This document shows positions 48,135 to 62,920 of a stretch of DNA of 64,000 bases, in pieces (the stretch's first letter is position 1; each line of letters starts with the position of its first letter). The notes under the pieces are model-generated. The model saw only the letters and a program-made list of their open reading frames with translations. It ran no database searches and was not told the origin of the DNA. A program made the position numbers and the translations under genes. The DNA is taken from contig CAWEGQ010000009.1 in assembly GCA_963808605.1 (NCBI GenBank), forward strand, positions 472,697-536,696, in the 5' to 3' direction. This DNA comes from an uncultured Solirubrobacterales bacterium. Its GTDB lineage: Bacteria; Actinomycetota; Thermoleophilia; Solirubrobacterales; Solirubrobacteraceae.

Positions 48135-48937
48135 TGCAGTTAGTGCCGACTCGCCTCGGCGTGCTCGGCTGGCCGGTGGCCCACAGCCGGTCGCCGGCGA
48201 TGCAGAACGCGGCGCTGGCCGCGGTCGGGCTGGAGTCCTGGCGCTACCAGCTGCTCCCGGTTCCGCCCGAGCGCTTCGCCGAAACCGTCGCTGCCCTGCC
48301 CGGCGCCGGCTTCCGCGGGGCCAACGTGACGATTCCTCACAAACGGAGCGCGTTGGCGCTGGCCGACGTGGCCACCGCCCGGGCGCGGGCGATCGGAGCC
48401 GCGAACACGCTCGTGTTCGAGCCCGACGGCACCATCCACGCCGATAACACCGATGCGCCGGCGCTGCTGGCCGCGCTGCCGTTTCCGATGCCCGGGCGCT
48501 CGGCGCTGGTACTCGGGGCGGGCGGCATCGCGCGCGCCGCGGTCTGGGCGCTGCTGGACGCCGGAGCGAGCGAAGTGTCGGTTTGGAACCGCACGCCCGG
48601 CCGGGCTGAGGAGCTTTGCGCAGAGATTGGAGGCCGCCCGGTCCGCGATCTCGCCTCAGCGGACCTGCTCGTCCACTGTACGTCCAGCGGACTGGACAAA
48701 AATGCCTCGGCGTTCAAGCAGCTGCCGCTGAAGGCCGAAAACCTCGATAGGTACGAATGCGTGGTTGATCTGGTCTACAGCGACTCGGGCACCGAGCTAG
48801 TGCGAGCGGCACGCGCGCGCTCGCTGCACGTCGTCGACGGTCTCGAGTTGCTGGTCGGCCAGGGAGCGCTCAGCTTCGAACAGTTCACCGGCCGCCCGGC
48901 CCCGGTGGACGTGATGGACCGAGCGGTGCGGAAGTGA
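48134..48937 (+). CDS. aroE: Shikimate dehydrogenase
   Basis: LGVLGWPVAHSRSPAMQNAA, GANVTIPHK, NTDAPA, LGAGGIARA. GTG start overlaps the mltG stop. Confidence 0.85.
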   Translation: MQLVPTRLGVLGWPVAHSRSPAMQNAALAAVGLESWRYQLLPVPPERFAETVAALPGAGFRGANVTIPHKRSALALADVATARARAIGAANTLVFEPDGTIHADNTDAPALLAALPFPMPGRSALVLGAGGIARAAVWALLDAGASEVSVWNRTPGRAEELCAEIGGRPVRDLASADLLVHCTSSGLDKNASAFKQLPLKAENLDRYECVVDLVYSDSGTELVRAARARSLHVVDGLELLVGQGALSFEQFTGRPAPVDVMDRAVRK

Positions 48938-50724
48938 CCGACAACGTATCCCCGCTGCGACCCGTGCAGGACGGTGCGACCGGCCGCGGGGCGCAGGGTG
49001 CTGGTGGTGTCACCCAACCCTCGCTGCGCGGCGGTTCGGGCCGGTTCCTCACCGACGTGCTGGTCGAGCTCGGATTCGTTGACCGCGAGCGCGTGCAGAA
49101 GGCGATCGAGGAGGCCCGCCAGGCCGGCGTCCCGCCAGAGCGCGTGCTGCTCGACGCGCGCACCATCACCTCCGAGCAGCTCTCTCACGCGATCGCCGAG
49201 CGCTACGGATTGGATCACATCGACCTCGGCGTGTTCAAGGTCGACATGGCGGCGGCCAATCTGCTCAGCGCCTCCGCCGCGAAGCGCTACAGCGCCGTCC
49301 CGGTCGCCTACGTCGATGAGCACACGCTCCTGCTGGCCATGTCTGATCCGGCCAACGTGCTCGCCGTCGACGACATCGCGCTGCTGACCCGGCTGGACAT
49401 TCGCCCGGCCGTCGCCTCCGCCGATGACATCGTCTCGCTGATCACCCGGATGAATCGCTTCGAGGCCGCCGTCCAGGAGGCGGTCGACCAGAGCGAGGAC
49501 GCCGCGGCCCCGCTGGAGATCGTCGACCTGCGCGAGTCCGCCGAGGACGCGCCGGTGATCAAGCTGGTGCACTCGATCATCGCGCAGGCGACCGAGCGGG
49601 GCGCATCCGACATCCACTTCGAGCCGCAGCCCGACTCGACCGGCCGGTCCGGACGCGAATTACGGGTGCGGATGCGGATCGACGGCGTCCTCACCGACGA
49701 GATGATCGTGCCCAAGCGGATGGTGGCCGGCGTCGTCTCGCGGATCAAGATCATGAGTGACCTGGATATCGCCGAGCGCCGCCTGCCGCAGGACGGCCGC
49801 GTCGGACTGACCATCGAAGGCCGCCAGGTCGACGTGCGCGTCGTGACCATCCCGAGCGTGCACGGGGAGTCCGTCGTGCTGCGGATCCTCGACAAGGAGA
49901 GCATCCGGCTGGAGCTCGACCGGCTCGGGATGTCTCCGCCCGAACTCGATCGCTTCCGTCGTTCGTTTCATCGCTCGCACGGGGCCGTGCTGACCACCGG
50001 TCCGACCGGATCCGGCAAGTCCACATCCCTGTACGGCGCGCTGCTCGAGCTCAACACGCCGGAGAAGAACATCATCACGATCGAGGATCCGGTCGAGTAC
50101 CAGATCAAGGGCATCACCCAGATGCAGGTCAACAACAAGGCCGGGCTGACGTTTGCCACCGGCCTGCGCTCGATGATGCGCGCCGATCCCGACATCCTGA
50201 TGGTGGGGGAGATCCGCGACCGCGAGACCGCGCAGATCGCGATCGAGGGAGCGCTGACCGGCCACATGGTGCTCTCGACCCTGCACACCAACGACGCGCC
50301 CTCGGCGATCACCCGGCTGATCGAGATGGGAATCGAGCCGTTCCTGGTCGCCTCCTCGATTGACTGCGTGGTCGCCCAGCGTCTCGCCCGCACGCTCTGC
50401 TCCCACTGCAAGAAACGCACGATCGTTCCCGCCGCGATCCTGCGCGATCACGGCTTCGCCGCCCAGTTCGACATCGAGGCGTATGAGGCGGTCGGTTGCG
50501 TGCGCTGCGGGCAGATGGGCTACCGCGGACGCACCGGGCTGTACGAGGTGATGACCGTGTCGGAGGAGATCCGCTCGCTGATCCTGACGCGCGCATCCGC
50601 CGATCAGATCGCCGCCGTGGCGGTGCGGGAGGGAATGAGGCGTCTACGGGAGGACGGACTCGACAAGGTCAAGTCCGGGCTCACTTCGATGTCCGAAATC
50701 TCCCGGGTCACCGGCAGCGGCTGA
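48934..50724 (+). CDS. pilB: Type IV pilus assembly ATPase PilB (GspE family) with N-terminal T2SSE_N domain
   Basis: GTGA overlap with aroE; Walker A GPTGSGKST; Asp and His boxes; tetracysteine CSHCK...CVRCG. Confidence 0.9.
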   Translation: MTDNVSPLRPVQDGATGRGAQGAGGVTQPSLRGGSGRFLTDVLVELGFVDRERVQKAIEEARQAGVPPERVLLDARTITSEQLSHAIAERYGLDHIDLGVFKVDMAAANLLSASAAKRYSAVPVAYVDEHTLLLAMSDPANVLAVDDIALLTRLDIRPAVASADDIVSLITRMNRFEAAVQEAVDQSEDAAAPLEIVDLRESAEDAPVIKLVHSIIAQATERGASDIHFEPQPDSTGRSGRELRVRMRIDGVLTDEMIVPKRMVAGVVSRIKIMSDLDIAERRLPQDGRVGLTIEGRQVDVRVVTIPSVHGESVVLRILDKESIRLELDRLGMSPPELDRFRRSFHRSHGAVLTTGPTGSGKSTSLYGALLELNTPEKNIITIEDPVEYQIKGITQMQVNNKAGLTFATGLRSMMRADPDILMVGEIRDRETAQIAIEGALTGHMVLSTLHTNDAPSAITRLIEMGIEPFLVASSIDCVVAQRLARTLCSHCKKRTIVPAAILRDHGFAAQFDIEAYEAVGCVRCGQMGYRGRTGLYEVMTVSEEIRSLILTRASADQIAAVAVREGMRRLREDGLDKVKSGLTSMSEISRVTGSG

Positions 50725-50793
50725 GCCGTCCAGACGCGTCCAGCTTTCGCGACGGCCCTCAATACGAGCCTTGTAACTGCCGATAGGGGGCGC

Positions 50794-51888
50794 ATGGAGC
50801 TTGACTTCGCCGACGTCTTGATGGAGGTCGTCGACCGTCGTGCCTCCGACCTCCATCTCACCGCGGGCGCTCCCCCGATGCTGCGCGTGCGCGGGCGCCT
50901 GGCCCCGCTCGAGGGATATCCGGCCCTGACGCCGAGCGACACGCGCGAGATCGTCTATTCGATCCTCTCCAATGCCCAGCGCCAGAAGCTGGAGAACAAC
51001 TGGCAGCTCGACTTCGCCTATCAGATCCCGGGAACCGCCCGGTTCCGGGTCAATGCGTACTTCCAGCGCTCGGCGCTCGGTGCCGCGTTCCGTCTGATCC
51101 CGTTCGAGATCGCGCCCCTGGCTTCGCTTGGATTGCCCCCGGCGGTGGCCGAGTTCGCCAACCGTCCGCGCGGTCTGGTGCTGGTCACCGGTCCCACCGG
51201 CTCAGGGAAATCGACCACGCTCGCCTCACTGCTCGACGTGATCAACATGGAGCGCGAAGAGCACATCATGACGATCGAGGACCCGATCGAGTTCCTCCAT
51301 TCGCACAAGCGCTGCATTGTCAACCAGCGCGAGGTCGGCTCGGACGCCACCAGCTTCGCCGATGCCCTGAAGTCCGCCCTGCGCCAGGACCCCGACGTGA
51401 TCCTGGTCGGCGAGATGCGCGACCTCGAGACGATCGGCACGGCGATCACCGCGGCGGAAACGGGCCATCTCGTGTTCGCCACGCTCCACACCCAGGACAC
51501 GCCGCAGACGATCGACCGCATCATCGACGTGTTCCCATCGGCGCAGCAGGCCCAGGTCCGGGCCCAGCTTTCGGTGGCCCTGCAGGGAATCGTCACGCAG
51601 ACGCTGCTACCCACCGCCGACGGCGCCGGCCGCTGTGTCGCCGCCGAGGTGCTGGTTCCCACTCCGGCCGTGCGCAACCTGATCCGGGAAGGCAAGAGCC
51701 ACCAGATCTACTCGGTGCTGCAGACTGGTGGCGCCCATGGGATGCAGACCATGGACTCGGCGCTGGCCCAACTGGTCCGGGCCGGCAAGATCTCCCGTCA
51801 GCTCGCCGAATCCCGCGCCCACTCGGCCGAGGAGCTCAGGCGCCTGATCGGCGGGGTCGCCACGGGCGGCAGCCAGATGGCGGCGTAG
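50794..51888 (+). CDS. pilT: Type IV pilus retraction ATPase PilT
   Basis: ASDLHLTAGAPP, GPTGSGKSTT, GHLVFATLHT, AIRNLIREGK-like VRNLIREGK motif. Confidence 0.9.
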   Translation: MELDFADVLMEVVDRRASDLHLTAGAPPMLRVRGRLAPLEGYPALTPSDTREIVYSILSNAQRQKLENNWQLDFAYQIPGTARFRVNAYFQRSALGAAFRLIPFEIAPLASLGLPPAVAEFANRPRGLVLVTGPTGSGKSTTLASLLDVINMEREEHIMTIEDPIEFLHSHKRCIVNQREVGSDATSFADALKSALRQDPDVILVGEMRDLETIGTAITAAETGHLVFATLHTQDTPQTIDRIIDVFPSAQQAQVRAQLSVALQGIVTQTLLPTADGAGRCVAAEVLVPTPAVRNLIREGKSHQIYSVLQTGGAHGMQTMDSALAQLVRAGKISRQLAESRAHSAEELRRLIGGVATGGSQMAA

Positions 51889-51892
51889 CGCG

Positions 51893-53101
51893 GTGGCCAC
51901 CTTCCAGTTCAAGGCGATGGACCTCGCGGGCGTGCCCGCCGCCGGCGAGGTGGAGGCGGTGTCCAAGCAGGACGTCGCCGATCAGCTCAGGCAGCGCGGG
52001 CTCGTCGTCATCGACATCGCCCACAAGTACCGCTCCAAGGAGCTCAACCTTGAGCTGTTCGCGCGGGTCAAGGCGAACGATCTCTCCCTGGCCACCCGGC
52101 AGCTCTCGACGATGGTCAGCTCCGGTATGTCGATCCTGCGGGCGCTCTACGTGCTCGAGACGCAGACGAAGTCGAAGCTCCTGCAGAGCACCGTGGTGGC
52201 CGTCCGCAACGACGTCGAGGCCGGCCTGCTGCTGTCCGACGCGCTCGAGCGCCATCCGAAGGTGTTCGGCCCGCTGTACGTCTCGATGGTGCGCGCGGGG
52301 GAGACCGGAGGCGTGCTCGAGGAGTGCCTGCTCCGCGTCGCCGACCAGCTGGAGAAGGATGCCTCGCTGCGTCGCCAAGTGCGCGCCGCGATGGTCTACC
52401 CCGCGGTGGTGATCTCGTTTGCGGTGATCGTCCTGCTGGCGCTGGTGGCTTTCCTGATCCCCGTGTTCGAGGGGGTCTTCAAGGAGTTTCCAGGGAAGCT
52501 GCCCGCCCTCAGTCAGGTCATGGTCGACTTCTCACACCTGCTGACCAAGCAGTGGTACGTGTTGATCGTCTTCGTCGCCGCCGTCGTCTTCGGCTTCCTG
52601 TCGTTCAAGAAGTCGAAATGGGGACGTCCCCATTGGGACGCCTTCAGGCTGCGCGTGCCGATGAAGATCGGCGAGGTCGTCCAGAAGGTCTCGATCGCCC
52701 GCTGGTCGCGCACGCTCTCCTCGCTCACCTCGGCCGGAGTCCCGATCATCCAGGCGCTCGAGATCACCGGCAAGACGGCCGGCAACATGGTGGTGGAGAA
52801 GGCCATGGCGCAGGTGATCAACTCGGTCAAGTCGGGCGGGACGATCTCCGAGCCGCTCAAGCACGCCAGCGTGTTCCCCCCGATGGTCGCTCAGATGGTG
52901 GGCGTCGGCGAGGAGACCGGCGGTCTCGACACGATGCTGAGCAAGATCGCCGACTTCTACGACGACGAGGTCGACGCCGCGGTCAAGGCGCTGACCTCGA
53001 TCCTCGAGCCCGTCATGATCATCGTGGTCGGCGGCATCGTCGGCGTGATCGTGATCTCGATGTACCTGCCGCTGTTCAGCGTTTACAACAGCATCAAGTA
53101 A
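51893..53101 (+). CDS. pilC: Type IV pilus platform protein PilC (GspF family)
   Basis: Two GspF repeats (MVRAGETGG, MVGVGEETGG), three TM segments, 402 aa. Confidence 0.9.
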   Translation: MATFQFKAMDLAGVPAAGEVEAVSKQDVADQLRQRGLVVIDIAHKYRSKELNLELFARVKANDLSLATRQLSTMVSSGMSILRALYVLETQTKSKLLQSTVVAVRNDVEAGLLLSDALERHPKVFGPLYVSMVRAGETGGVLEECLLRVADQLEKDASLRRQVRAAMVYPAVVISFAVIVLLALVAFLIPVFEGVFKEFPGKLPALSQVMVDFSHLLTKQWYVLIVFVAAVVFGFLSFKKSKWGRPHWDAFRLRVPMKIGEVVQKVSIARWSRTLSSLTSAGVPIIQALEITGKTAGNMVVEKAMAQVINSVKSGGTISEPLKHASVFPPMVAQMVGVGEETGGLDTMLSKIADFYDDEVDAAVKALTSILEPVMIIVVGGIVGVIVISMYLPLFSVYNSIK

Positions 53102-54199: not shown

Positions 54200-54850
54200 A
54201 TGGTGCGGTCGATGATCGTCACCGAGGCAGTCGACAGCTATCTGGCCAAGCTGCGGCCCGAGTCCGATCCCGTTCTGGCCGAGATGGAGGCTCATGGCGC
54301 GCGCGATCGGATACCGATTGTCGCCCCTGAAACCGGTGCGTTGCTGCACATCCTGGCTCTGTCCCGGCGCGCCGAAAGGGTGGTCGAGGTGGGCACCGCG
54401 ATCGGGGTCTCGACGCTGTACCTGGCTCGGGCACTGCCGGCCGGCGGCAAGATCGTCTCGTTCGAGATCGATGCCGAGCGCCACGCCGCCGCCCGGGCCT
54501 ATCTCGATCGCGCGGGGGCGAGCGACCGCGCAGATCTTCGACTGCAGGACGCGCGCGAGGGTCTGGCCGGCCTCGAGCCCCCCTTCGACATGGCTTTCAT
54601 CGATGGGGTCAAGGCTCAGTACATCGACTACTTCGACCTGGTGCTGCCGCTGCTGGGTCCCGGCGCGGTGCTGGCGGTCGACAATGTGCTGATGTCGGGC
54701 ACGGTCGCCGAAGGCCGGTCCGATGGCCACTGGACCGACGAGCAGATCGCCACCGCCCGGGCGTTCAATGAGCGCCTGTTGGCCCGGCCCGAACTGGTCG
54801 GCACGGTCACGCCGGTGGGCGACGGCGTGCTGGTCGCGGTGCGAAGGTGA
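54200..54850 (+). CDS. Class I SAM-dependent O-methyltransferase (caffeoyl-CoA OMT-like)
   Basis: VVEVGTAIGVSTLYLA (SAM motif I), FDMAFIDG, LAVDNVL. Confidence 0.85.
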   Translation: MVRSMIVTEAVDSYLAKLRPESDPVLAEMEAHGARDRIPIVAPETGALLHILALSRRAERVVEVGTAIGVSTLYLARALPAGGKIVSFEIDAERHAAARAYLDRAGASDRADLRLQDAREGLAGLEPPFDMAFIDGVKAQYIDYFDLVLPLLGPGAVLAVDNVLMSGTVAEGRSDGHWTDEQIATARAFNERLLARPELVGTVTPVGDGVLVAVRR

Positions 54851-55053
54851 GCCCGGCGGCCAAACGGCGGGAGCGGGCAGAGCTGCCGCCCGAGGATCGC
54901 AGCGTATGCACTCCGTGCCGGGGAACCGGCAAGGTGATCTCCGGGCTGGACGGCTCGCCGCATGAGGTCACCTGTCCGTGGTGTGGCGGCTCGGGCGCGT
55001 TCGCGCAGGGCCGGGATGCGCAGGACCCGGACCGAACGTCCAGCGCCGACTGA
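54847..55053 (+). CDS. Small DnaJ-type zinc-finger protein (two CxxCxGxG motifs)
   Basis: GTGA-coupled to the OMT gene; CTPCRGTG and CPWCGGSG motifs; 68 aa. Confidence 0.55.
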   Translation: MSPAAKRRERAELPPEDRSVCTPCRGTGKVISGLDGSPHEVTCPWCGGSGAFAQGRDAQDPDRTSSAD

Positions 55054-55125
55054 ACACTCCGCCTTCCGGGGTAGCACAAATGTCCAATGCGTTCAAGTCG
55101 GCGCAGGCCCCGCCGATACATGCTC

Positions 55126-55218
55126 TGCCAGAGTCAGAGTGCCAAAGGCAAACCGTCTGCGAGGACGGGACGCAAAGCCACGGACCTCTCATGTCAGAGG
55201 GAGCCGGGCTGCCACCAA
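55126..55218 (+). promoter_or_regulatory. c-di-GMP-I (GEMM-I) riboswitch aptamer, copy 1
   Basis: AAAGGCAAACC-[CCGTCT-GCGA-GGACGG]-GACGCAAAGCC-[CGG.CCTCT-loop-AGAGG.CCG]-GGCTGCC. The conserved GGCAAACC and GGGACGCAAAGCC blocks, with a GNRA-capped P2 hairpin between them, match the class I c-di-GMP aptamer architecture. Confidence 0.85.
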
Positions 55219-55309
55219 AGGCTTTACTAGTGCTGTCGTAGTCACTATTGGTGTGCTTGGGGCCCACGGGATCTGGCGTAGACCCAATCCCACGATCCGA
55301 GGAGGATCA

Positions 55310-55747
55310 ATGCTCCACAAGCTCCGCAAGCGCGCCGAGGACGAAAAGGGTTTTACCCTGATCGAGCTCCTCGTCGTCATCCTGATCATCGGCATTCTGG
55401 CCGCGATCGCGATCCCGTCGTTCCTGAACCAGAAGTCCAAGGCCAATGACGCCTCGGCGAAGGAGCTGGCGCGGACCGCTCAGACCACCGCCGAGACGGT
55501 CGCCACCGACCACAACGGCAGCTACACGACGGTGAGCCCGACCACGCTGAACGCGGCTGAGGCCTCGATCCCGATCGTGTCAGGCAACAACGCCTGGCTG
55601 AGCGCGGCGTCCGGCACGGCCACCGGCTATGTCGTGACCACCACTTCGGTCCCGACCGGTAACACGTTCACGATCACCAACACGGCGGGCGTCGTCTCCC
55701 GCACGTGTACCGGTACCACCGGCGGGTGTGTGGGCGGTACCTGGTAG
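55310..55747 (+). CDS. pilA: Type IV pilin (major pilin candidate), copy 1
   Basis: SD GAGGAGG; class III signal peptide MLHKLRKRAEDEKG/FTLIELLVVILIIGILAAIAIP with Glu at +5; C-terminal Cys pair C-TGTTGG-C. Confidence 0.9.
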   Translation: MLHKLRKRAEDEKGFTLIELLVVILIIGILAAIAIPSFLNQKSKANDASAKELARTAQTTAETVATDHNGSYTTVSPTTLNAAEASIPIVSGNNAWLSAASGTATGYVVTTTSVPTGNTFTITNTAGVVSRTCTGTTGGCVGGTW

Positions 55748-55776: not shown

Positions 55777-55802
55777 GAGAGGCGGCCTTCGGGCCGCCTC
55801 TC
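55777..55802 (+). terminator. Hairpin terminator after pilin 1
   Basis: GAGAGGCGGCC-TTCG-GGCCGCCTCTC followed by GTGCGTTCT. Confidence 0.6.
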
Positions 55803-55912
55803 GTGCGTTCTGGTGGTCGCGTTTAGGACGAAAGAACGATGCTCGCGCCGGCGCAGATCGTAGATACGTCCAATGCACCTAAGCCCAGTCCGTAGTTTGC
55901 CGATAAGTGCTT

Positions 55913-56005
55913 TGCCAGAGTCAGAGTGCCAAAGGCAAACCGTCCGTGAGGGCGGGACGCAAAGCCACGGACCTCTCAATTCAGAGGGAGCCGGGCTACC
56001 ACCGT
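55913..56005 (+). promoter_or_regulatory. c-di-GMP-I (GEMM-I) riboswitch aptamer, copy 2
   Basis: Same architecture as copy 1. The P2 hairpin is CCGTCC-GTGA-GGGCGG, so pairing-preserving changes and a GNRA loop are retained. Confidence 0.85.
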
Positions 56006-56092
56006 GGGCTTTAGTGCTGTCGTGCCCGGGATGGCGAATGGACGACGGATCTGGTGCGAGATAACCCAATCCACCCGATCCGAGGAGGATCA

Positions 56093-56530
56093 ATGCTCCA
56101 CAAGCTCCGCAAGCGCGCCGAGGACGAGAAGGGTTTTACCCTGATCGAGCTCCTCGTCGTCATCCTGATCATCGGCATTCTGGCCGCGATCGCGATTCCG
56201 TCGTTCCTGAACCAGAAGTCCAAGGCCAATGACGCCTCGGCGAAGGAGCTGGCGCGTACCGCTCAGACCACGGCCGAGACGGTCGCCACCGACCACAACG
56301 GTGACTACTCGACGGTGAGCCCGACGACGCTGAACGCGGCTGAGGCCTCGATCCCGATCGTGTCAGGCAACAACGCCTGGCTGAGCGCGGCGTCCGGCAC
56401 GGCCACCGGCTATGTCGTGACCACCACCTCGGTGCCCACCGGTAACACGTTCACGGTGACCAACGCCTCCGGCGTGATCACCCGAACCTGCACCGGCACC
56501 ACCGGTGGGTGCGTGGGCGGCACCTGGTAA
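56093..56530 (+). CDS. pilA: Type IV pilin, copy 2
   Basis: Prepilin leader and N-terminal helix identical to copy 1. About 7 substitutions, all in the C-terminal globular part. Confidence 0.9.
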   Translation: MLHKLRKRAEDEKGFTLIELLVVILIIGILAAIAIPSFLNQKSKANDASAKELARTAQTTAETVATDHNGDYSTVSPTTLNAAEASIPIVSGNNAWLSAASGTATGYVVTTTSVPTGNTFTVTNASGVITRTCTGTTGGCVGGTW

Positions 56531-56608: not shown

Positions 56609-56653
56609 GCGTTTCCGGCCCGGGCTGAGTCAAGTCCGGATGGCCGCCCGCCG

Positions 56654-58399
56654 ATGCCTCTCTCGATGCACAGCTACCGACGCCACCCGTCGCTGATCGC
56701 CGCGCTGATCGTCCTCGCGGTCACCGCGGTTGCGTTGACGTTGGCGCGCCGGCCTCAGCAACTCGCGCTGCCCAAGGCCACCGCGGTCGCCGCGGTGTTG
56801 CGCGACGGTCCGGCCGCCCGCGACCTACGCCAATCCGGGTGGAACCACGTGTCGGTTGACATGCTCGACAGCCGGCTCGAGCGGGTCAGCTTCTACTTCC
56901 ACGGGCGAGTGGTGTTCGAGGGAGCGGTCGACCGTAGCGGGTCGGTCGCACACGCCTACGAGTTCGCGGGCCGAACGGTGCCCTACGGCAGCCCGCTCGC
57001 GTTCGAGCCGTCCGTGCTGATCGGCCTGGCCGTGCTGTTCGCGATGATGACGCTGGTGGTTCCGCTGAGGCGGATCCGGAACCTCGATGTGGCCGCCTTG
57101 CTGTCGTTCCTCGCGCCGGTCGTCCTTCTGCAGCAGCGCTACGTCGACGCATCGGTGATCTCGGCGGTTCCCGGGATGTCGTACCTGGCGCTGCGCTGCG
57201 CCTGGGCCGCGCTCGGCCCGCCACCTCAGCCGGCCGGCTCGACGCCGCTCTACCTGCAGCTGACCGCCAGATGGCAGGACGCCGAGCGCCTGCGGGTGCT
57301 TCGCCTGACCTTGGGCGCGCTCGCGCTGGTGTTCCTGCTGGTCGGCGTCAGCTCTCCCGGCGCGGTCGATGTCGCCTACGCGGTGATGGAGGGCGCGACG
57401 AAGCTACTGCACGGCGTTCTTCCCTACGGGCACATGCCGGGCGACGTCGTCCACGGTGACACCTATCCGATCCTCAGTTACCTGCTCTACACGCCCCTCG
57501 CCGCGATCTCGCCGGTCGGGTCGACCTGGGATTCGGTCGACCTCGCCCTGGGAGCGGCGGTCCTGGCCGCGCTGTCCGCGGCCGGGGCGGCGTTCTGCTT
57601 CGCCGCCGGTCCCCGCCGCCGTCGCGCCAAGCGCTCAGCCGCCGCGGAGGCCCACGGACTGCGGACGGCGATCGCCTGGCTGTCGTTCCCGCCCCTGCTG
57701 ATCGCCGTGTCGACCGGAACCTCGGACGTCATCCTCGGAGCGATGCTCGTGTTCGCGATCGTGCTCTGGCGGCGGCCCGCCGCCTCCACGGCGGTGCTGG
57801 CCGCGGCAGGCTGGTTCAAGCTCGCACCGTTCGCGCTCCTGCCGCTCTGGCTCGCGCCGCTCCGCGGCCGCCGGCTGGTGGCCGCCATCGCGGCGATCGC
57901 CGGCGTCTGCACCGCGATGCTGGCGGTGCTGGTCGGAGTCGGAGGCACGGGAGGGTTGGCGGCAATGGCGCGCGCGATGGGCTACCAGTTCCAGCGCGGC
58001 TCGCCGCAATCGCCCTGGGCGGCGCTGGGGCTCAGCGCCATCCAACCGCTCGGCCAGGCCGCCGTACTGGCGCTGATCGCCGGCGCCTGCGTGCGGCTGC
58101 GCAGGGATCCCGGTCTGGCCACGCCGGAGCGGATGGCCGCACTCGCCGCCGCCGTGCTGCTGGGGCTGCAGCTGGCGGCGGACTACTGGGCCTTCCTGTA
58201 CCTCGCCTGGATCGTCCCCTTGATCGCGCTGTCGGTGCTGGCCGACGCCGCACCGGTCGCCGCGGCGTACCGGGCCGCGCCGGAGCGCCACTCGTCCCGT
58301 GCGGATCTCGACCTGCTGACGCCGGCCGGTCAGGTCATCGCCACAGCGCCCGATTTGCTCTCAACATCGGGCCAGATCCCGCCGATACACGCCTCGTGA
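56654..58399 (+). CDS. Polytopic membrane protein, putative GT-C-fold glycosyltransferase (DUF2029/GT87-like)
   Basis: More than 12 TM helices; an extracytoplasmic loop with GVLPYGHMPGDVVHGDTYPILSYLLYTP resembles polyprenyl-phosphate-sugar-dependent transferases. Family call tentative. Confidence 0.6.
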   Translation: MPLSMHSYRRHPSLIAALIVLAVTAVALTLARRPQQLALPKATAVAAVLRDGPAARDLRQSGWNHVSVDMLDSRLERVSFYFHGRVVFEGAVDRSGSVAHAYEFAGRTVPYGSPLAFEPSVLIGLAVLFAMMTLVVPLRRIRNLDVAALLSFLAPVVLLQQRYVDASVISAVPGMSYLALRCAWAALGPPPQPAGSTPLYLQLTARWQDAERLRVLRLTLGALALVFLLVGVSSPGAVDVAYAVMEGATKLLHGVLPYGHMPGDVVHGDTYPILSYLLYTPLAAISPVGSTWDSVDLALGAAVLAALSAAGAAFCFAAGPRRRRAKRSAAAEAHGLRTAIAWLSFPPLLIAVSTGTSDVILGAMLVFAIVLWRRPAASTAVLAAAGWFKLAPFALLPLWLAPLRGRRLVAAIAAIAGVCTAMLAVLVGVGGTGGLAAMARAMGYQFQRGSPQSPWAALGLSAIQPLGQAAVLALIAGACVRLRRDPGLATPERMAALAAAVLLGLQLAADYWAFLYLAWIVPLIALSVLADAAPVAAAYRAAPERHSSRADLDLLTPAGQVIATAPDLLSTSGQIPPIHAS

Positions 58400-59691
58400 G
58401 CCAGATCGGACCGAGACGCATCGCGAGTCGCCTCGCCGGGCCCAAAGGCGCGCTGATCGCCTGTGCGTTGCCGGCGATCGCGATCGTGGCCTACATCGCG
58501 CTGAACTCAGGGACCAGTGGCGACTACTCCACCCAGGCCCCGGTCGCCGGAGACAACGCGGGGCCGGCGCTCGATGCGCTGATCCACGGCCATCTGACCA
58601 GCTTCGTGACCCACCAGCCGCTGATGGGCCTCAGCTCACTGCTTCTGCGCGCGCCGGTGGCCGGACTCGGCGTTCTGATGGGAGCCGACCGCGGGCTGGT
58701 CTACGGGCTCGGGGCACTGGTCTGCCTCCTGCCGCTGGCGCTGCTCAGCGCGTGGATGGTCGGCAGGTCCGGACCGCCGGAGCAACGAGTCGGCGCGATG
58801 TTCGCCGCCGGGATCCTGCTGATCGGCCCGGCCACCGTCGCCGCCGTCCATGTCGGCCATCCAGAGGAGGTACTGGCCGCGACGCTGGCCACCGGGGCGG
58901 TCGTGGCGGCGTGTCGCCACCGGCCGGGCTGGGCCTGGCCACTGCTCGGCCTGGCGGTCGGCACCAAGCAATGGGCACTGCTGGCCGCCCCCTGCGTGCT
59001 GCTGGCCCTGCCGGACCGCCGGGTGGTTACCGGGCTGAAGGCCGGTGCGCTCGCCCTCGCCCTCTCGGCGACGCTGCCGCTCGCCGATCCGGCCGCGTTC
59101 GCCCGCGCCGACTCCGTCGTCGGCGGACTGCGCTTCACCGATCCCTTCAGCCTCTGGTGGCCGCTGGGCACGCCGATTTCCGCCCCCGCCCACGCGAGCT
59201 TCCTGCCTACCGCGCATCTGCTGCCCTTCGCCCTCCCGCGATCGTCGGCCGCGGGGGCGGGGCTGATGCTCGCGCTCGCCGCGCTATGGCTGTACTGCTC
59301 CCGGAGAGCCGACCTGAAGACTCCGATCGACCCCCTTGCGCTGCTGGCGTTGCTGGGGCTGTTCCGCTGCATAACCGACCCGGATCCGCTGCAGTACAAC
59401 TTCGTTGCGCTCCTGATCCCGCTCGCGGCGTGGGAGGTCGTCGGGTTGCGCCGGCTCCCGCTCGCCACAACGGTGGCGGCCGGAGCGGTGGCAGCACTGG
59501 CCCGGGGGTCGGAAGCGCTGCACGCCGGCGCCGGGCTGCATCTGACCCCCAGCCTCCTGAGTGCCCTGTCGATTGCCTGGACGGTGCCGCTCGGCTTCTA
59601 TCTGGCCCGCCGGGTAGTTCACGCCCCGGCTCTGTTCGCATCAAGCCGGCTCGGGGCGATCGCCCTTGGTCCGGCGAGGAGGAGCGGATAG
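58396..59691 (+). CDS. Polytopic membrane protein, putative GT-C-fold glycosyltransferase
   Basis: GTGA overlap with the upstream gene; more than 10 TM helices. Family call tentative. Confidence 0.55.
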   Translation: MSQIGPRRIASRLAGPKGALIACALPAIAIVAYIALNSGTSGDYSTQAPVAGDNAGPALDALIHGHLTSFVTHQPLMGLSSLLLRAPVAGLGVLMGADRGLVYGLGALVCLLPLALLSAWMVGRSGPPEQRVGAMFAAGILLIGPATVAAVHVGHPEEVLAATLATGAVVAACRHRPGWAWPLLGLAVGTKQWALLAAPCVLLALPDRRVVTGLKAGALALALSATLPLADPAAFARADSVVGGLRFTDPFSLWWPLGTPISAPAHASFLPTAHLLPFALPRSSAAGAGLMLALAALWLYCSRRADLKTPIDPLALLALLGLFRCITDPDPLQYNFVALLIPLAAWEVVGLRRLPLATTVAAGAVAALARGSEALHAGAGLHLTPSLLSALSIAWTVPLGFYLARRVVHAPALFASSRLGAIALGPARRSG

Positions 59692-60450
59692 ATGCCCGTC
59701 GCCGGAATCGCCCTCGCCGCGCTCAGCGGACTGCTGTTCGGCTCGTTCTTCAACGTGGTCGCCTACCGCCTCCCCCTGGGGCAATCGCTCGCCGTCCCCG
59801 GCTCGCACTGCCCCAGCTGTGGGGTACCGGTCAAGCCCTATGACAACGTGCCGGTGCTCGGCTGGCTGTTGCTGCGGGGACGCTGTCGCGCCTGCCGGAT
59901 CCCAATTTCGGCGCGCTACCCGATCGTGGAGGCATTGACGGCGATCCTGGCGGTGGCGGTCGTGGTGGTCAAGCACTCCCCACGCGACATCGTGCTCGGG
60001 CTGGTGCTCGTCGCGGTGCTCGTGCCGACCGCGCTGATCGACCTCGACAACCGCATCATTCCCAACAAGATCATGCTTCCGGCCGCCATTCTGGCGGTGG
60101 CGATCGGTTTGGCGCTCGCACCGAGCCACGTCCCCGAGCAGCTGATCGCCGGCGCGGCGGCGGGCGGATTCCTGCTGTTGTTCGCGCTGGCCTACCCCCG
60201 CGGGATGGGGATGGGCGACGTCAAGCTCGCCGCAGTGCTCGGCCTGTTCCTCGGCCGGTCGGTGGCCGTGGCGATCCTCGGCGGGGTCCTCGCCGGGACC
60301 GTGATCGGACTCGGGATCATGGCCAAGGTGGGCGTGGAGAAAGGGCGAAAGACGGCCGTTCCGTTCGGCCCCTTCCTCGCGCTGGGCGGGATCGTCGGGC
60401 TGCTCCTCGGGCCGACGCTCGTCCACTGGTATCTGCACACCGCGGTCTGA
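59692..60450 (+). CDS. pilD: Prepilin peptidase / N-methyltransferase PilD (A24 family)
   Basis: Zinc-ribbon CPSCG...CRAC; aspartyl protease motifs LIDLDN and GMGMGDVKL. Confidence 0.9.
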   Translation: MPVAGIALAALSGLLFGSFFNVVAYRLPLGQSLAVPGSHCPSCGVPVKPYDNVPVLGWLLLRGRCRACRIPISARYPIVEALTAILAVAVVVVKHSPRDIVLGLVLVAVLVPTALIDLDNRIIPNKIMLPAAILAVAIGLALAPSHVPEQLIAGAAAGGFLLLFALAYPRGMGMGDVKLAAVLGLFLGRSVAVAILGGVLAGTVIGLGIMAKVGVEKGRKTAVPFGPFLALGGIVGLLLGPTLVHWYLHTAV

Positions 60451-60517: not shown

Positions 60518-61798
60518 ATGTCAGCCACATCCGCATCCCTCTCCACCACCGCCGCGTCGGGAGCGGGGGATGCGGGTCGCCGATCGGCCGGCCACCGCGC
60601 GGCCGGGCTCGCTCGCTCGCATTACGCGTTACTCCTCGGCGCGTTTCTGGGCTCCCGCCTGTTGGTCCTCGCCGGCGGGCTCACCGGGTCGCTGACCACC
60701 GGGCGCCGCGCCGACTGGAGCATGTTCGATCCCGGCCGGATCACCGCGCACCTCGGCCCGATCGGCGACGCGTTGGCGGCCGTCGCCGTGCGCTGGGACT
60801 CGCTCCACTATCTGGCAATCGCTCGCCACGGATACTCGACGGTCGGCAACGCCGTCTTCTATCCGCTCTATCCGATTCTGCTCAGGGCGCTCGGCCTGAT
60901 CCTGGGCTCCGATGTGATCGCCGGTGTGGCGATCTCGTGCGCCTCGTTCATTGTCGCCCTCGAGCTCCTGCATCGTCTGACCGAGCTCGAGCTCGGCCGT
61001 GGAGCGGCTGACGCCGCCGTGCTGCTGCTGTGTTTCGCGCCGCTGTCGTTCTTCTTCTCGGCCGTCTACACCGAATCGGTGTTCTTGGCGTTGTCGCTCG
61101 GGGCGGTCTACGCTGCGCGACGCGAGCGGTGGGCGCTGGCCTGCGGCCTCGGCGCGCTCGCCACCCTGACCCGGGTGCCGGGCGTACTGCTCGCCGCCCC
61201 GATCGCCCTGCTCTTCTGGCGCGCCAACCGCAGGGCGCCGGATCGACGCCTCGCCTGGCTGCTGCTGATCCCGGCCGCTCTCGCCGCCTACCCCGCCTAC
61301 CTGGCGAGCCGTGGCTTCGGGCTGCTGGCACCCGTGACCCAGCAGGGCGCCGCTCAGCACGGGCACCGCTTCACCGGGCCGGTCAGCTCGATCGTGGCCG
61401 CGCTGCAGTCGGCCGCGTCGGGCTTGGGCGCAATCGCGGGCGGCACCGACCCGGTTTTCTCGCCCACGATCGGCGGACCGCTATCGCCCAGCGCGGAGAG
61501 CGTCCTCCTGCTCGCCGTCCTGTGCCTGGCCGGGTGGGCTCTGGTGGCTTGCTTTCGCCGGTTACCGCTCGCCTATTCCCTCTATGCCGCGCTCGCGCTG
61601 GTCGTGTGCGTATCCAGTCCGGTCTCGCGGCAGCCACTGATCTCCCTCGACCGGTACGCCCTGACCATCTTTCCCCTGTGGATGGCGGCGGGCGCGGCGC
61701 TCTCCCGGCGACGCCTGTTGTGGCCCGTTCTCGGGCTGATGGGGGCGCTGCTGGCGTTCTATTCCTTCCAGTTCGCGACGTGGGCATTTGTGGCCTGA
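60518..61798 (+). CDS. Polytopic membrane protein, PIG-V-like mannosyltransferase family (GT-C)
   Basis: VRWDSLHYLAIARHGYS...FYPLYPILL resembles the PIG-V/GPI-mannosyltransferase-2-type signature; ~10 TM helices. Confidence 0.65.
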   Translation: MSATSASLSTTAASGAGDAGRRSAGHRAAGLARSHYALLLGAFLGSRLLVLAGGLTGSLTTGRRADWSMFDPGRITAHLGPIGDALAAVAVRWDSLHYLAIARHGYSTVGNAVFYPLYPILLRALGLILGSDVIAGVAISCASFIVALELLHRLTELELGRGAADAAVLLLCFAPLSFFFSAVYTESVFLALSLGAVYAARRERWALACGLGALATLTRVPGVLLAAPIALLFWRANRRAPDRRLAWLLLIPAALAAYPAYLASRGFGLLAPVTQQGAAQHGHRFTGPVSSIVAALQSAASGLGAIAGGTDPVFSPTIGGPLSPSAESVLLLAVLCLAGWALVACFRRLPLAYSLYAALALVVCVSSPVSRQPLISLDRYALTIFPLWMAAGAALSRRRLLWPVLGLMGALLAFYSFQFATWAFVA

Positions 61799-61873: not shown

Positions 61874-62920
61874 ATGCGAACGACCGCAGGGAAATCGATC
61901 GTTGGGCTAGACATCGAGCCTGGTTACGTGGCCGCCGTAGAGGGACGCGGTGGCCGGGTCGCGGTCGAGCGGGCGGCGATGGCGCCGCTGTCTCCGGGCG
62001 TCGTCCGCGAGGGCGAGGTACTCGACGTCGACACGCTCGCCACGGTGCTCAGGGAGATGTTCGCCGAGCACAAGCTGTCCAAGCGGGTTCGGCTCGGTGT
62101 CGCCAACCAGCGCATCGTGATGCGGACGATCGATCTTCCGCCGCTCAAGGATGAGAAGCAGCTCGCATCGGCGATCCGCTTCCAGGCCCAGGAGCACATT
62201 CCCATGCCGCTGGATCAGGCCGTGCTCGAGCATCATTCGCTCGGTTTGGTGGAGACGCCCGACGGCACCCGCAGCCGCGTCGTCCTGGTCGCCGCCCGCC
62301 GCGACATGATCGACAGCCTGCTCGAGGCCACCCGCCGCGCGGGCCTGCGCCCACAGGGAATCGACCTGTCGGCCTTTGCGATGATCCGCGCTCTGTACCG
62401 CCCGGGAGCCGGCGACGCCACGCTGTACATGAGCGTGGGTGGAGTCACCAACCTGGCGGTCGCCGTCGGTACCACCTGCGTCTTCACCCGCGTCGTCGCC
62501 CACGGGACCGAATCGATGGCCAGCGAGCTGGCCGAGCGCCGCGCGCTCACGCTCGAGCACGCCCACGGTTGGCTGAAGCACGTCGGCTTGCTGATGCCGA
62601 TCGACGACATCGACGGCGACCGCGAGATCATCGTCGAGGCCCGCACCGTGCTCGGCGAAGGAATGCGGCGGATCGTCGACGATGTCCGCAACTCGCTCGA
62701 CTTCTACACGATGCAGACCGGCGCCACGGCCGTCGGGCGCGTCGTCCTGACGGGTCCGGCGGTGTCGATTCCCGGCTTTTCCGAGCAGCTCGACTCGGGT
62801 CTGCTGCTACCCCTCGAGGTCGGCATCGTGTCCGAGGCTCGTCCGGGCGCGTTCGGCAAGACCGATCCTGGGCATCTGGCCGTGGCGGCAGGGCTGACGC
62901 TCGAAGAGGTTGCGGCGTGA
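61874..62920 (+). CDS. pilM: Type IV pilus assembly protein PilM (actin-like ATPase fold)
   Basis: IVGLDIEPGYVAAVE, GIDLSAFA, VVLTGPAVSIPGF. Confidence 0.9.
   Translation: MRTTAGKSIVGLDIEPGYVAAVEGRGGRVAVERAAMAPLSPGVVREGEVLDVDTLATVLREMFAEHKLSKRVRLGVANQRIVMRTIDLPPLKDEKQLASAIRFQAQEHIPMPLDQAVLEHHSLGLVETPDGTRSRVVLVAARRDMIDSLLEATRRAGLRPQGIDLSAFAMIRALYRPGAGDATLYMSVGGVTNLAVAVGTTCVFTRVVAHGTESMASELAERRALTLEHAHGWLKHVGLLMPIDDIDGDREIIVEARTVLGEGMRRIVDDVRNSLDFYTMQTGATAVGRVVLTGPAVSIPGFSEQLDSGLLLPLEVGIVSEARPGAFGKTDPGHLAVAAGLTLEEVAA

Follow-up and report, generated by a model that had tools for sequence, protein, structure and literature searches.

We found that two tandem type IV pilin genes in a 64,000-nucleotide (nt) stretch of contig CAWEGQ010000009.1 (the whole stretch is hereafter the window) each carry, in the leader of their mRNA, an aptamer of the class I cyclic di-GMP (c-di-GMP) riboswitch family. 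By every feature that can be tested in sequence these are class I c-di-GMP riboswitches, and we consider it highly probable that they are functional and govern pilin expression. The explanation that in our judgement accounts best for the whole arrangement, and that we hold with moderate confidence, combines a sigma-28/WhiG-type transcription start, a class I riboswitch and competing leader folds that would act on translation. Associations between GEMM elements and pili have been known since the motif was discovered, and c-di-GMP riboswitches of class I have long been established, as has their connection with pili; the aptamer itself adds a lineage, the Thermoleophilia-type Actinomycetota, rather than a principle. 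The finding matters mainly for a possible two-layer c-di-GMP circuit, to us the most interesting angle, and for the comparative set of leaders. These number about 50 distinct pilin leaders and form a clean natural set for dissecting a translational GEMM-I platform with a long-range helix to the 5' end.

Two class I aptamers in the leaders of tandem pilin genes

We searched the entire window with cmscan for members of all 4227 Rfam families, using the curated gathering thresholds, and repeated the scan on the sub-region. The whole window gave two matches in total, both on the + strand, both full-length and both from the c-di-GMP-I clan CL00126 (Table 1). A first-pass annotation, made from the sequence alone, had proposed a single GEMM-I aptamer at 55126-55218 in the leader of a type IV pilin gene. 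The conserved blocks that it quoted are present there on the + strand as described, the P3 hairpin that it drew is found within the aptamer match, and the element belongs to the clan both by its covariance-model score and by its G, A and C ligand contacts at the spacing of the Vibrio cholerae aptamer Vc2. It had overlooked an equally good second copy, 787 nt downstream of the first and with a promoter look-alike of its own, and it had likewise missed the type of promoter and the expression platform. Its expectation of a significant Rfam match held for the clan, although the best model is RF03167 (c-di-GMP-I-GGC) and not RF01051. The aptamer does precede the Shine-Dalgarno (SD) sequence, but by less than the roughly 90 nt suggested: the SD, AGGAGG at 55300-55305, lies 82 nt past the aptamer end. 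It is the pilin genes themselves that begin about 90 nt beyond the aptamers, which stand on the coding strand, in the mRNA leader. The two aptamers are identical at 73 of 80 positions, and they differ in loops or by changes in P2 that preserve its pairing.

The cmscan structure line gives both elements a P1-P2-P3 three-helix junction, and across 46 relatives the pairs of P2 and P3 are double-changed in 1-12 sequences each. In copy 1, P1 joins (A)GUG (55138-41) to CAC(C) (55213-16), and P2 reads CCGUCU-GCGA-GGACGG (55153-68), with the GNRA loop GCGA where copy 2 has GUGA. The nucleotides that contact c-di-GMP are G20, A47 and C92 in Vc2 numbering (PMC4744006). Copy 1 has G55147, A55174 and C55212 at the equivalent positions, copy 2 has G55934, A55961 and C55999, and the spacing from G to A is 27 nt in both, equal to that of Vc2, Vc1 and Bc1. 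By sequence alignment the predicted C44:G83 tertiary pair would fall on C55171 and G55203 of copy 1. Because both copies carry the canonical nucleotides, we read them as ordinary class I c-di-GMP sensors despite their RF03167 label, and we infer direct gating of the pilin mRNA by c-di-GMP, ligand binding included. The window aptamers are like Vc2 (class I GEMM-I, RF01051, clan CL00126) in the three-helix junction, the blocks GGCAAACC and GGGACGCAAAGCC, the GNRA loop of P2, the contact nucleotides and their spacing, and the position in a 5' untranslated region. They differ from it in a compact, G+C-rich P3, in a short P1 of 3-4 base pairs (bp), and in a platform of about 90 nt that, instead of a terminator, has a predicted helix reaching back to the start of the transcript.

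The proteins encoded downstream share 138 of 145 residues (409 of 438 nt in the coding sequences). Both begin with MLHKLRKRAEDEKG followed directly by FTLIELLVVILIIGILAAIAIP, a class III signal peptide cleaved between G and F (...EKG/FTLIELLVV), and both match Pfam N_methyl (PF07963) and TIGR02532, which together identify them as type IV pilins. They also have E5, a hydrophobic alpha1-N and a Cys pair near the C-terminus, and a prepilin peptidase and assembly ATPases are encoded nearby. The leader is thus that of a type IV pilin, as first annotated: it lies on the coding strand ahead of an N_methyl/TIGR02532 pilin, within a pilBTC/pilD/pilM cluster.

We then asked how closely the aptamer is tied to pilus genes. 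Searching soil metagenomes with a pattern confined to the aptamer's 5' half yielded 58 loci. Wherever enough downstream DNA was present, a pilin gene starts 80-128 nt later, or in one case pilD; the three apparent exceptions among the 58 are a frameshifted pilin, a pilin with a GTG start and the locus with pilD next. In that locus (L164, 528-1026) the aptamer and 5' platform are kept, the remainder is replaced, and the next gene encodes the prepilin peptidase PilD. Among at least 120 loci found by a scan of a genome collection, those followed by a pilin are from metagenome-assembled genomes (MAGs) of Actinomycetota. The nearest of those listed are from Solirubrobacterales/Solirubrobacteraceae (L039, L076, L087), and L110, another near relative among the matches listed, is labelled Actinomycetota only. 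Across about 50 distinct leaders the link between aptamer and type IV pilus gene appears essentially absolute, the leaders being mutually related, so that counts of sequences are counts of non-independent events. The 68.5% GC of the window and the Solirubrobacterales/Solirubrobacteraceae origin of the nearest aptamer-plus-pilin leaders agree with the earlier guess of an Actinomycetota-like genome, and from the sequence we infer a Solirubrobacterales-like lineage (class Thermoleophilia). Look-ups with the exact sequences of pilin 1 and PilT matched no public contig. Tandem aptamer-pilin pairs are also present in L039 and L076, and copies are more alike within genomes than between them, which suggests recent duplication or gene conversion. 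As a separate observation, in four Cellulomonas loci (L014, L017, L026, L061) an aptamer of this kind is followed, after about 45 nt, by a gene for a MerR-like protein of 71-74 aa (containing LLTPGEVAVLFRVDPKTVTRWAQAGKLSAVRTLGGHRRFHE), which we take to resemble the Streptomyces developmental regulator BldC.

The c-di-GMP-I-GGC label and other ligand classes

RF03167 is the best-scoring clan model for both copies (61.9 and 64.9 bits; threshold 59), and this top rank is what favours the reading that they are true c-di-GMP-I-GGC variants with altered ligand specificity. We regard that reading as very improbable. From the name of the family and the consensus of its model, GGC would stand for G20/G47/C92. 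In the invariant block the consensus of RF03167 is GGGACGC-G-AAGCC (GACGCGAAGCC), where both window copies have GGGACGC-A-AAGCC (GACGCAAAGCC); the sole mismatch is the column aligned to A47 of Vc2, at which both copies have A. The window copies are therefore like RF03167 in length and stem composition and lack its diagnostic G. When the genome collection was scanned with either A or G allowed at this column, at least 120 loci were found, with A in every match listed. Sixteen of 17 loci tested from this set are nevertheless labelled RF03167, and the seventeenth is the close relative L110, labelled RF01051 (59.6 bits; threshold 35). Loci L002, L008, L011, L021, L024, L039 and others likewise have the canonical A47 and the c-di-GMP-I-GGC label, at 61-74 bits.

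Since A47 is kept in all the matches listed and most of those tested carry the RF03167 label, the label appears to reflect overall shape and G+C content, and it is the compact, G+C-rich P3 and the short P1 that lead Rfam to rank RF03167 first. Clan competition displays only the best model: two lower-scoring clan matches at the gathering level, and four at the E-value level, went undisplayed, and those at the gathering level are almost certainly RF01051. We read the label as an effect of clan competition on compact, G+C-rich aptamers, not as a signal from the binding site. Automated "GGC variant" annotations should thus not be taken to imply altered ligand specificity, the label being unreliable for binding-site variants.

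The riboswitches for cyclic AMP-GMP (c-GAMP; GEMM-Ib) have A at the position equivalent to G20. This identity is ruled out by the G at 55147 and 55934. Four pilin-linked aptamers from other loci (L124, L134, L152, L135) read GCUGUCACC or GUUGUCAUC at the 3' junction, where U replaces the C equivalent to C92; this may be natural variation of affinity or specificity.

Promoters, leader folds and the direction of control

Ahead of each aptamer lies a promoter look-alike of the sigma-28/FliA/WhiG type, the consensus of which has -35 TAAA and -10 GCCGATAA separated by about 15-16 nt (PMC8325347, PMC12871210). The pattern T[AC]AA-N14-17-[GC][CT]CGA is matched by 29 of 50 related leaders, against 0.6% of shuffles. 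The -10 motif (G/C)(C/T)CGATA(A/C) is found in 47 of the 50, upstream of a conserved UGCCAGAG, and most leaders have TAAA or TCAA 14-17 nt upstream of it. Where measured, this -10 is placed 7-8 nt ahead of the leader's GCCAGA in 40 of 47 leaders. A promoter scan gave no sigma-70 consensus promoter in the leaders. As a match to the consensus, the pilin promoters are sigma-28/WhiG-type look-alikes. Further look-alikes on the + strand precede pilT (50759-50786), a GT87-like gene (56630-56657) and a 431-aa open reading frame (ORF; 58361-58388), and five of the seven + strand matches to the motif in the 64 kb fall between 50.7 and 58.4 kb. An additional box, ACAAACGTCCA, is kept in most of 50 aligned leaders (among L121-L178); in the window copies some 7-10 nt separate it from the -35-like element downstream, a distance that varies among relatives, and it may bind a transcription factor or act in the manner of an UP element.

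In Rubrobacter, Schumacher et al. found WhiG promoters with a TAAA ... GCCGATAA consensus, and type IV pilus genes are controlled there by RsiG, an anti-sigma factor armed by c-di-GMP; RsiG and WhiG are also reported in Conexibacter and Patulibacter, both Solirubrobacterales (PMC8325347). The window is like that system in that type IV pilus genes of a basal actinobacterial lineage would answer to c-di-GMP, and in promoter motifs of the TAAA-N15/16-GCCGATAA type within the pil cluster. It differs in that RsiG/WhiG works through the sigma factor when transcription initiates, whereas here an RNA sensor would lie downstream of the same type of promoter. The word riboswitch is absent from that paper (PMC8325347) and from its 2026 follow-up preprint. 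In the literature searched, whose coverage is incomplete, we found no account of c-di-GMP riboswitches that precede type IVa pilin genes in Actinobacteria or that follow WhiG-type promoters, and none of a stacked RsiG/WhiG and riboswitch arrangement. Rubrobacter marinus, a member of the genus in which RsiG-WhiG control of pili was described, has a perfect TAAA-N16-GCCGATAA 20 nt before the first aptamer block GGCAAACC (L069, 232-290, - strand).

We propose, tentatively, that in Solirubrobacterales-type Actinomycetota two c-di-GMP sensors are stacked on one transcript, that of the major pilin: a WhiG promoter, whose sigma factor would be sequestered by the c-di-GMP-armed RsiG, and a class I riboswitch whose platform has a 5'-end helix. 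Just as tentative is the part of this proposal in which that helix joins the extreme 5' terminus of the mRNA to the anti-SD-sequestering block. If true, the stacked sensors would make a double lock, or else a band-pass or pulse filter, for pilus production, depending on the sign of the riboswitch. WhiG-type promoters are known to be shut by c-di-GMP through RsiG in related bacteria, so the proposal offers a testable two-layer control of surface appendages.

In the mechanism that we favour, each tandem pilin unit would be transcribed from its sigma-28/WhiG-type promoter, from a predicted start that gives a leader of about 184 nt, of which nt 13-92 would fold as a canonical class I c-di-GMP aptamer. 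Output would depend on which of two incompatible folds, A or B, the leader adopts. In fold A the aptamer would be closed: P1 would be lengthened by an extension, P1x (GAGYC:GGCUY), which occupies the 5' leader, and a (C/G)GGAUC block would be left available for GAUCC(C/G) beside the SD, its partner in a helix that we call SQ. In fold B the aptamer would be open: the 5'-terminal GCCAGAG(Y)C would join GG(G)AUCUGG(C/U) about 140 nt further on, a helix that we call P0, which would take the 5' strand of SQ and leave a weak local SD hairpin alone. The ligand would favour fold A and so lower pilin translation, the same sense in which RsiG acts on WhiG-type promoters in related Actinomycetota.

A terminator scan found no intrinsic terminator on the + strand in either leader. 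With none following the aptamer, control is probably exerted at translation initiation. The pilA1 riboswitch of Clostridioides difficile (Cdi2_4), which like ours is a c-di-GMP sensor and stands in the mRNA leader of a monoderm bacterium's major type IV pilin, is reportedly of class II and an ON switch that works by transcription termination; the window's elements are of class I, without a terminator and probably translational. The c-di-GMP-I riboswitch Bc1 of Bacillus thuringiensis also has a class I aptamer with an unusually long, complex platform, but it uses two intrinsic terminators (PMC11218506), which the window leaders lack.

Three helices and the SD hairpin make up the proposed platform. 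P0 can form in 49 of 49 leaders (6 bp, a mismatch, then 2-5 bp) and was predicted unprompted by RNAalifold. In its alignment 96.7% of cells are paired, whereas sliding the partner leaves 21-51%, and compensatory variants occur in L127 (GCCACA:UGUGGC) and in L132 and L154 (GCCAGC:GCUGGC). P1x, with the family pairing GAGCC:GGCUC directly 3' of P1, overlaps the 5' strand of P0 and is found in nearly all leaders; it has compensatory variants in L140, L167, L122, L127 and L156, and is continuous with P1 in L136. In SQ, the GGGAUC of the P0 3' strand complements GAUCCC, which immediately precedes AGGAGG. The pairing runs into the SD in many relatives (CCUAGGGAUC:GAUCCCUAGG), up to the first GG of AGGAGG, whereas the window form, CGG(G)AUC:GAUCCG, ends at the SD edge, short of AGGAGG; the outer SQ pair shows a C:G swap in copy 2. 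The local SD hairpin (family form GAUCC-CAGGA-GGAUC) has two double-changed pairs, and reads CUUCC:GGAAG in L127. When duplex energies of matched strands were compared with those of permuted ones, z was -5.1 for SQ, -3.7 for the SD hairpin and -2.8 for P1x.

Four other platform elements were considered and dropped. The helices GCCA:UGGC (an anti-P1) and UUGG:CCAA and the inner stem GGG(A)UCU:AGACCC showed no partner-specific signal on permutation, though variants can be found by eye, and a 3-codon mini-ORF (AUG/GUG-CUG-UCG-UAG) is unconserved.

Plain minimum-free-energy folds of the two window leaders were uninformative (z about -1.5). We therefore rely on nearest-neighbour ensembles of 48-49 leaders, computed with soft penalties or with the aptamer fold enforced. 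In these, P1 closing and P0 are anti-cooperative by a mean of +6.5 kcal/mol, a value positive in 48 of 49 leaders. Enforcing the aptamer fold pushes the leader into P1x and suppresses P0, with p(P0) at 0.15 when P1 and the aptamer are enforced and at 0.64 when P1 is penalised. The aptamer fold lies 3.7 kcal/mol above the unconstrained ensemble, a cost small enough that ligand binding could plausibly tip the balance. Opening the region from -20 to +15 around the AUG costs 3.2 kcal/mol more with the aptamer closed than with P1 penalised (above +1 in 36 of 49 leaders, below -1 in 4), and 1.8 kcal/mol more than in the unconstrained ensemble (above +1 in 33 of 48, below -1 in 6). On these models we lean slightly towards a translational mechanism by competition among P0, P1x and SQ. 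The higher cost of opening the ribosome footprint with the aptamer closed favours, for the family, an OFF switch in which c-di-GMP lowers pilin translation, a direction that we would nonetheless call evenly poised; for the window's own two copies it is doubtful.

Several points weigh against this mechanism and its sign. P0, whose strands barely vary, is not significant when matched and permuted duplexes are compared, and has no double-changed pair in alignment A3. SQ has just one double-changed pair, and column-based covariation is weak for these helices. With blocks so nearly invariant and covariation so weak, they could be conserved for another cause, such as protein binding or a role as initially transcribed sequence. 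The equilibrium nearest-neighbour models omit ligand-induced tertiary structure and co-transcriptional folding. For the window leaders the modelled effect at the ribosome-binding site (RBS) is nil or reversed, at +0.8 and -1.5 kcal/mol relative to penalised P1 and +0.2 and -2.2 kcal/mol relative to the unconstrained ensemble, and p(P0) is low for copy 2. Among the window ORFs tested, neither whiG nor rsiG was seen. Finally, c-di-GMP commonly promotes type IV pili.

It is because the sequences are related, the covariation thin and the models limited to equilibrium that we hold the OFF direction no more firmly, and that the opposite sign is a serious rival, though we think it unlikely. Here c-di-GMP would switch pilin translation ON, the closed P1 aiding P0 by proximity or coaxial stacking and so freeing the SD region. 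P0 encloses the aptamer topologically and is compatible with P1 itself, and in both window copies the RBS costs as much or less to open when the aptamer is closed. The window SQ, moreover, stops before AGGAGG, and would dissolve the local hairpin that does cover the SD. The reported ON behaviour of the C. difficile pilin riboswitch and the MshEN-family domain of the PilB encoded here point the same way. An ON switch is opposed by the anti-cooperativity of P1 and P0, in which P1x takes the leader, by the compensatory variants of P1x and its continuity with P1, and by the reach of SQ into the SD in many relatives, which fits sequestration. An ON switch behind a WhiG promoter inhibited by c-di-GMP would, if true, be an incoherent circuit that yields pilin only at intermediate or changing c-di-GMP.

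Rather improbable, in our view, is that the aptamer acts not on translation but on mRNA decay, with P0 shielding the 5' end from 5'-end-dependent RNases, or on Rho-dependent termination in the leader. Such a role would suit the predicted start at the first nucleotides of P0, given the distance of the -10 noted above, as well as the lack of an intrinsic terminator and the small modelled change in SD accessibility (opening SD..AUG differs by 0.3 kcal/mol between the states). The start, however, is a prediction, the conserved complementarity extends to the SD region, the SD hairpin covaries, and inspection of the leaders revealed no C-rich, G-poor stretch of the rut kind. Translational control by competing folds remains the reading that we prefer.

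The pilus cluster around the pilin genes

The pilin units belong to a pilus gene cluster (Table 1), the upstream flank of which consists of the housekeeping genes hisS, mnmA-like, alaS, mltG/yceG and aroE.

Table 1. Positions of the leader elements, pilin genes and neighbouring pilus genes within the window
Feature	Positions	Strand	Remarks
PilB	48934-50724		Pilus cluster, upstream of the pilins
PilT	50794-51888		Pilus cluster
PilC	51893-53101		Pilus cluster
O-methyltransferase and small Cys-rich ORF			Between PilC and the pilin units
Upstream box ACAAATGTCCA	55076-55086	+	Family consensus ACAAACGTCCA; copy 2 equivalent at 55862-55872
Sigma-28/FliA/WhiG-type promoter look-alike, copy 1	55093-55119	+	TCAA-N15-GCCGATAC
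5' leader GCCAGAGUC, copy 1	55127-55135	+	5' strand of P0; at or adjoining the predicted transcript start
GAGUC, copy 1	55131-55135	+	5' strand of P1x, inside leader GCCAGAGUC
c-di-GMP-I aptamer, copy 1	55138-55217	+	RF03167, 61.9 bits, E = 3.4e-12, model 1-80/80
GGCUU	55220-55224	+	3' strand of P1x; partner GAGUC 55131-35
GGGAUCUGGC, copy 1	55268-55277	+	Shared strand: P0 with 5' leader, or SQ via CGG(G)AUC with GAUCCG 55294-99
GAUCC-GAGGA-GGAUC hairpin, copy 1	55294-55308	+	Encloses the SD; 5' arm is the 3' strand of SQ
Pilin gene 1	55310-55747	+	145-aa type IV pilin; leader peptide MLHKLRKRAEDEKG/FTLIE...; ATG 55310, stop 55747
Hairpin GAGAGGCGGCC-UUCG-GGCCGCCUCUC	55777-55802	+	G+C-rich, after pilin 1; read from sequence
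Sigma-28/WhiG-type promoter look-alike, copy 2	55880-55906	+	TAAG-N15-GCCGATAA
5' leader GCCAGAGUC, copy 2	55914-55922	+	5' strand of both P0 and P1x
c-di-GMP-I aptamer, copy 2	55925-56004	+	RF03167, 64.9 bits, E = 4.8e-13, full length
CGGAUCUGGU, copy 2	56046-56055	+	3' strand of P0; CGGAUC perfect complement of GAUCCG 56077-82 (SQ)
GAUCC-GAGGA-GGAUC hairpin, copy 2	56077-56091	+	SD AGGAGG 56083-56088
Pilin gene 2	56093-56530	+	145-aa type IV pilin; ATG 56093, stop 56530
Two membrane glycosyltransferase-like proteins			Between the pilin units and PilD
PilD	59692-60450		Pilus cluster
PilM	61874-62920		Pilus cluster

The hairpin that follows pilin gene 1 is likely a terminator or insulator that separates the two pilin units; the terminator scan does not call it, since it has no T-run. 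An Rfam match to BASRCII26 at this hairpin is spurious (27.9 bits against a threshold of 218).

Residues 39-177 of PilB match the Pfam MshEN domain, and the NCBIfam model "c-di-GMP_motif, MshE-related" gave a sub-threshold score (26.2 bits against a cut-off of 38). On inspection the binding motif is only partly conserved; through this domain c-di-GMP may act on the same pilus at yet another point.

Three ORFs near the pilins and pilD (56654-58399, 58396-59691 and 60518-61798) encode two large membrane glycosyltransferase-like proteins and the unassigned product of the 431-aa ORF. The glycosyltransferase-like pair gave one weak GT87 match and one match of the PIG-V/mannosyltransferase kind. The pair and the 431-aa ORF, set between the pilins and pilD, might contribute to glycosylation of the pilins. 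Upstream, a 68-aa ORF (54847-55053) with CxxC...CxxC motifs and weak DnaJ-zinc-finger-like matches stops 40 nt before the promoter look-alike of pilin gene 1.

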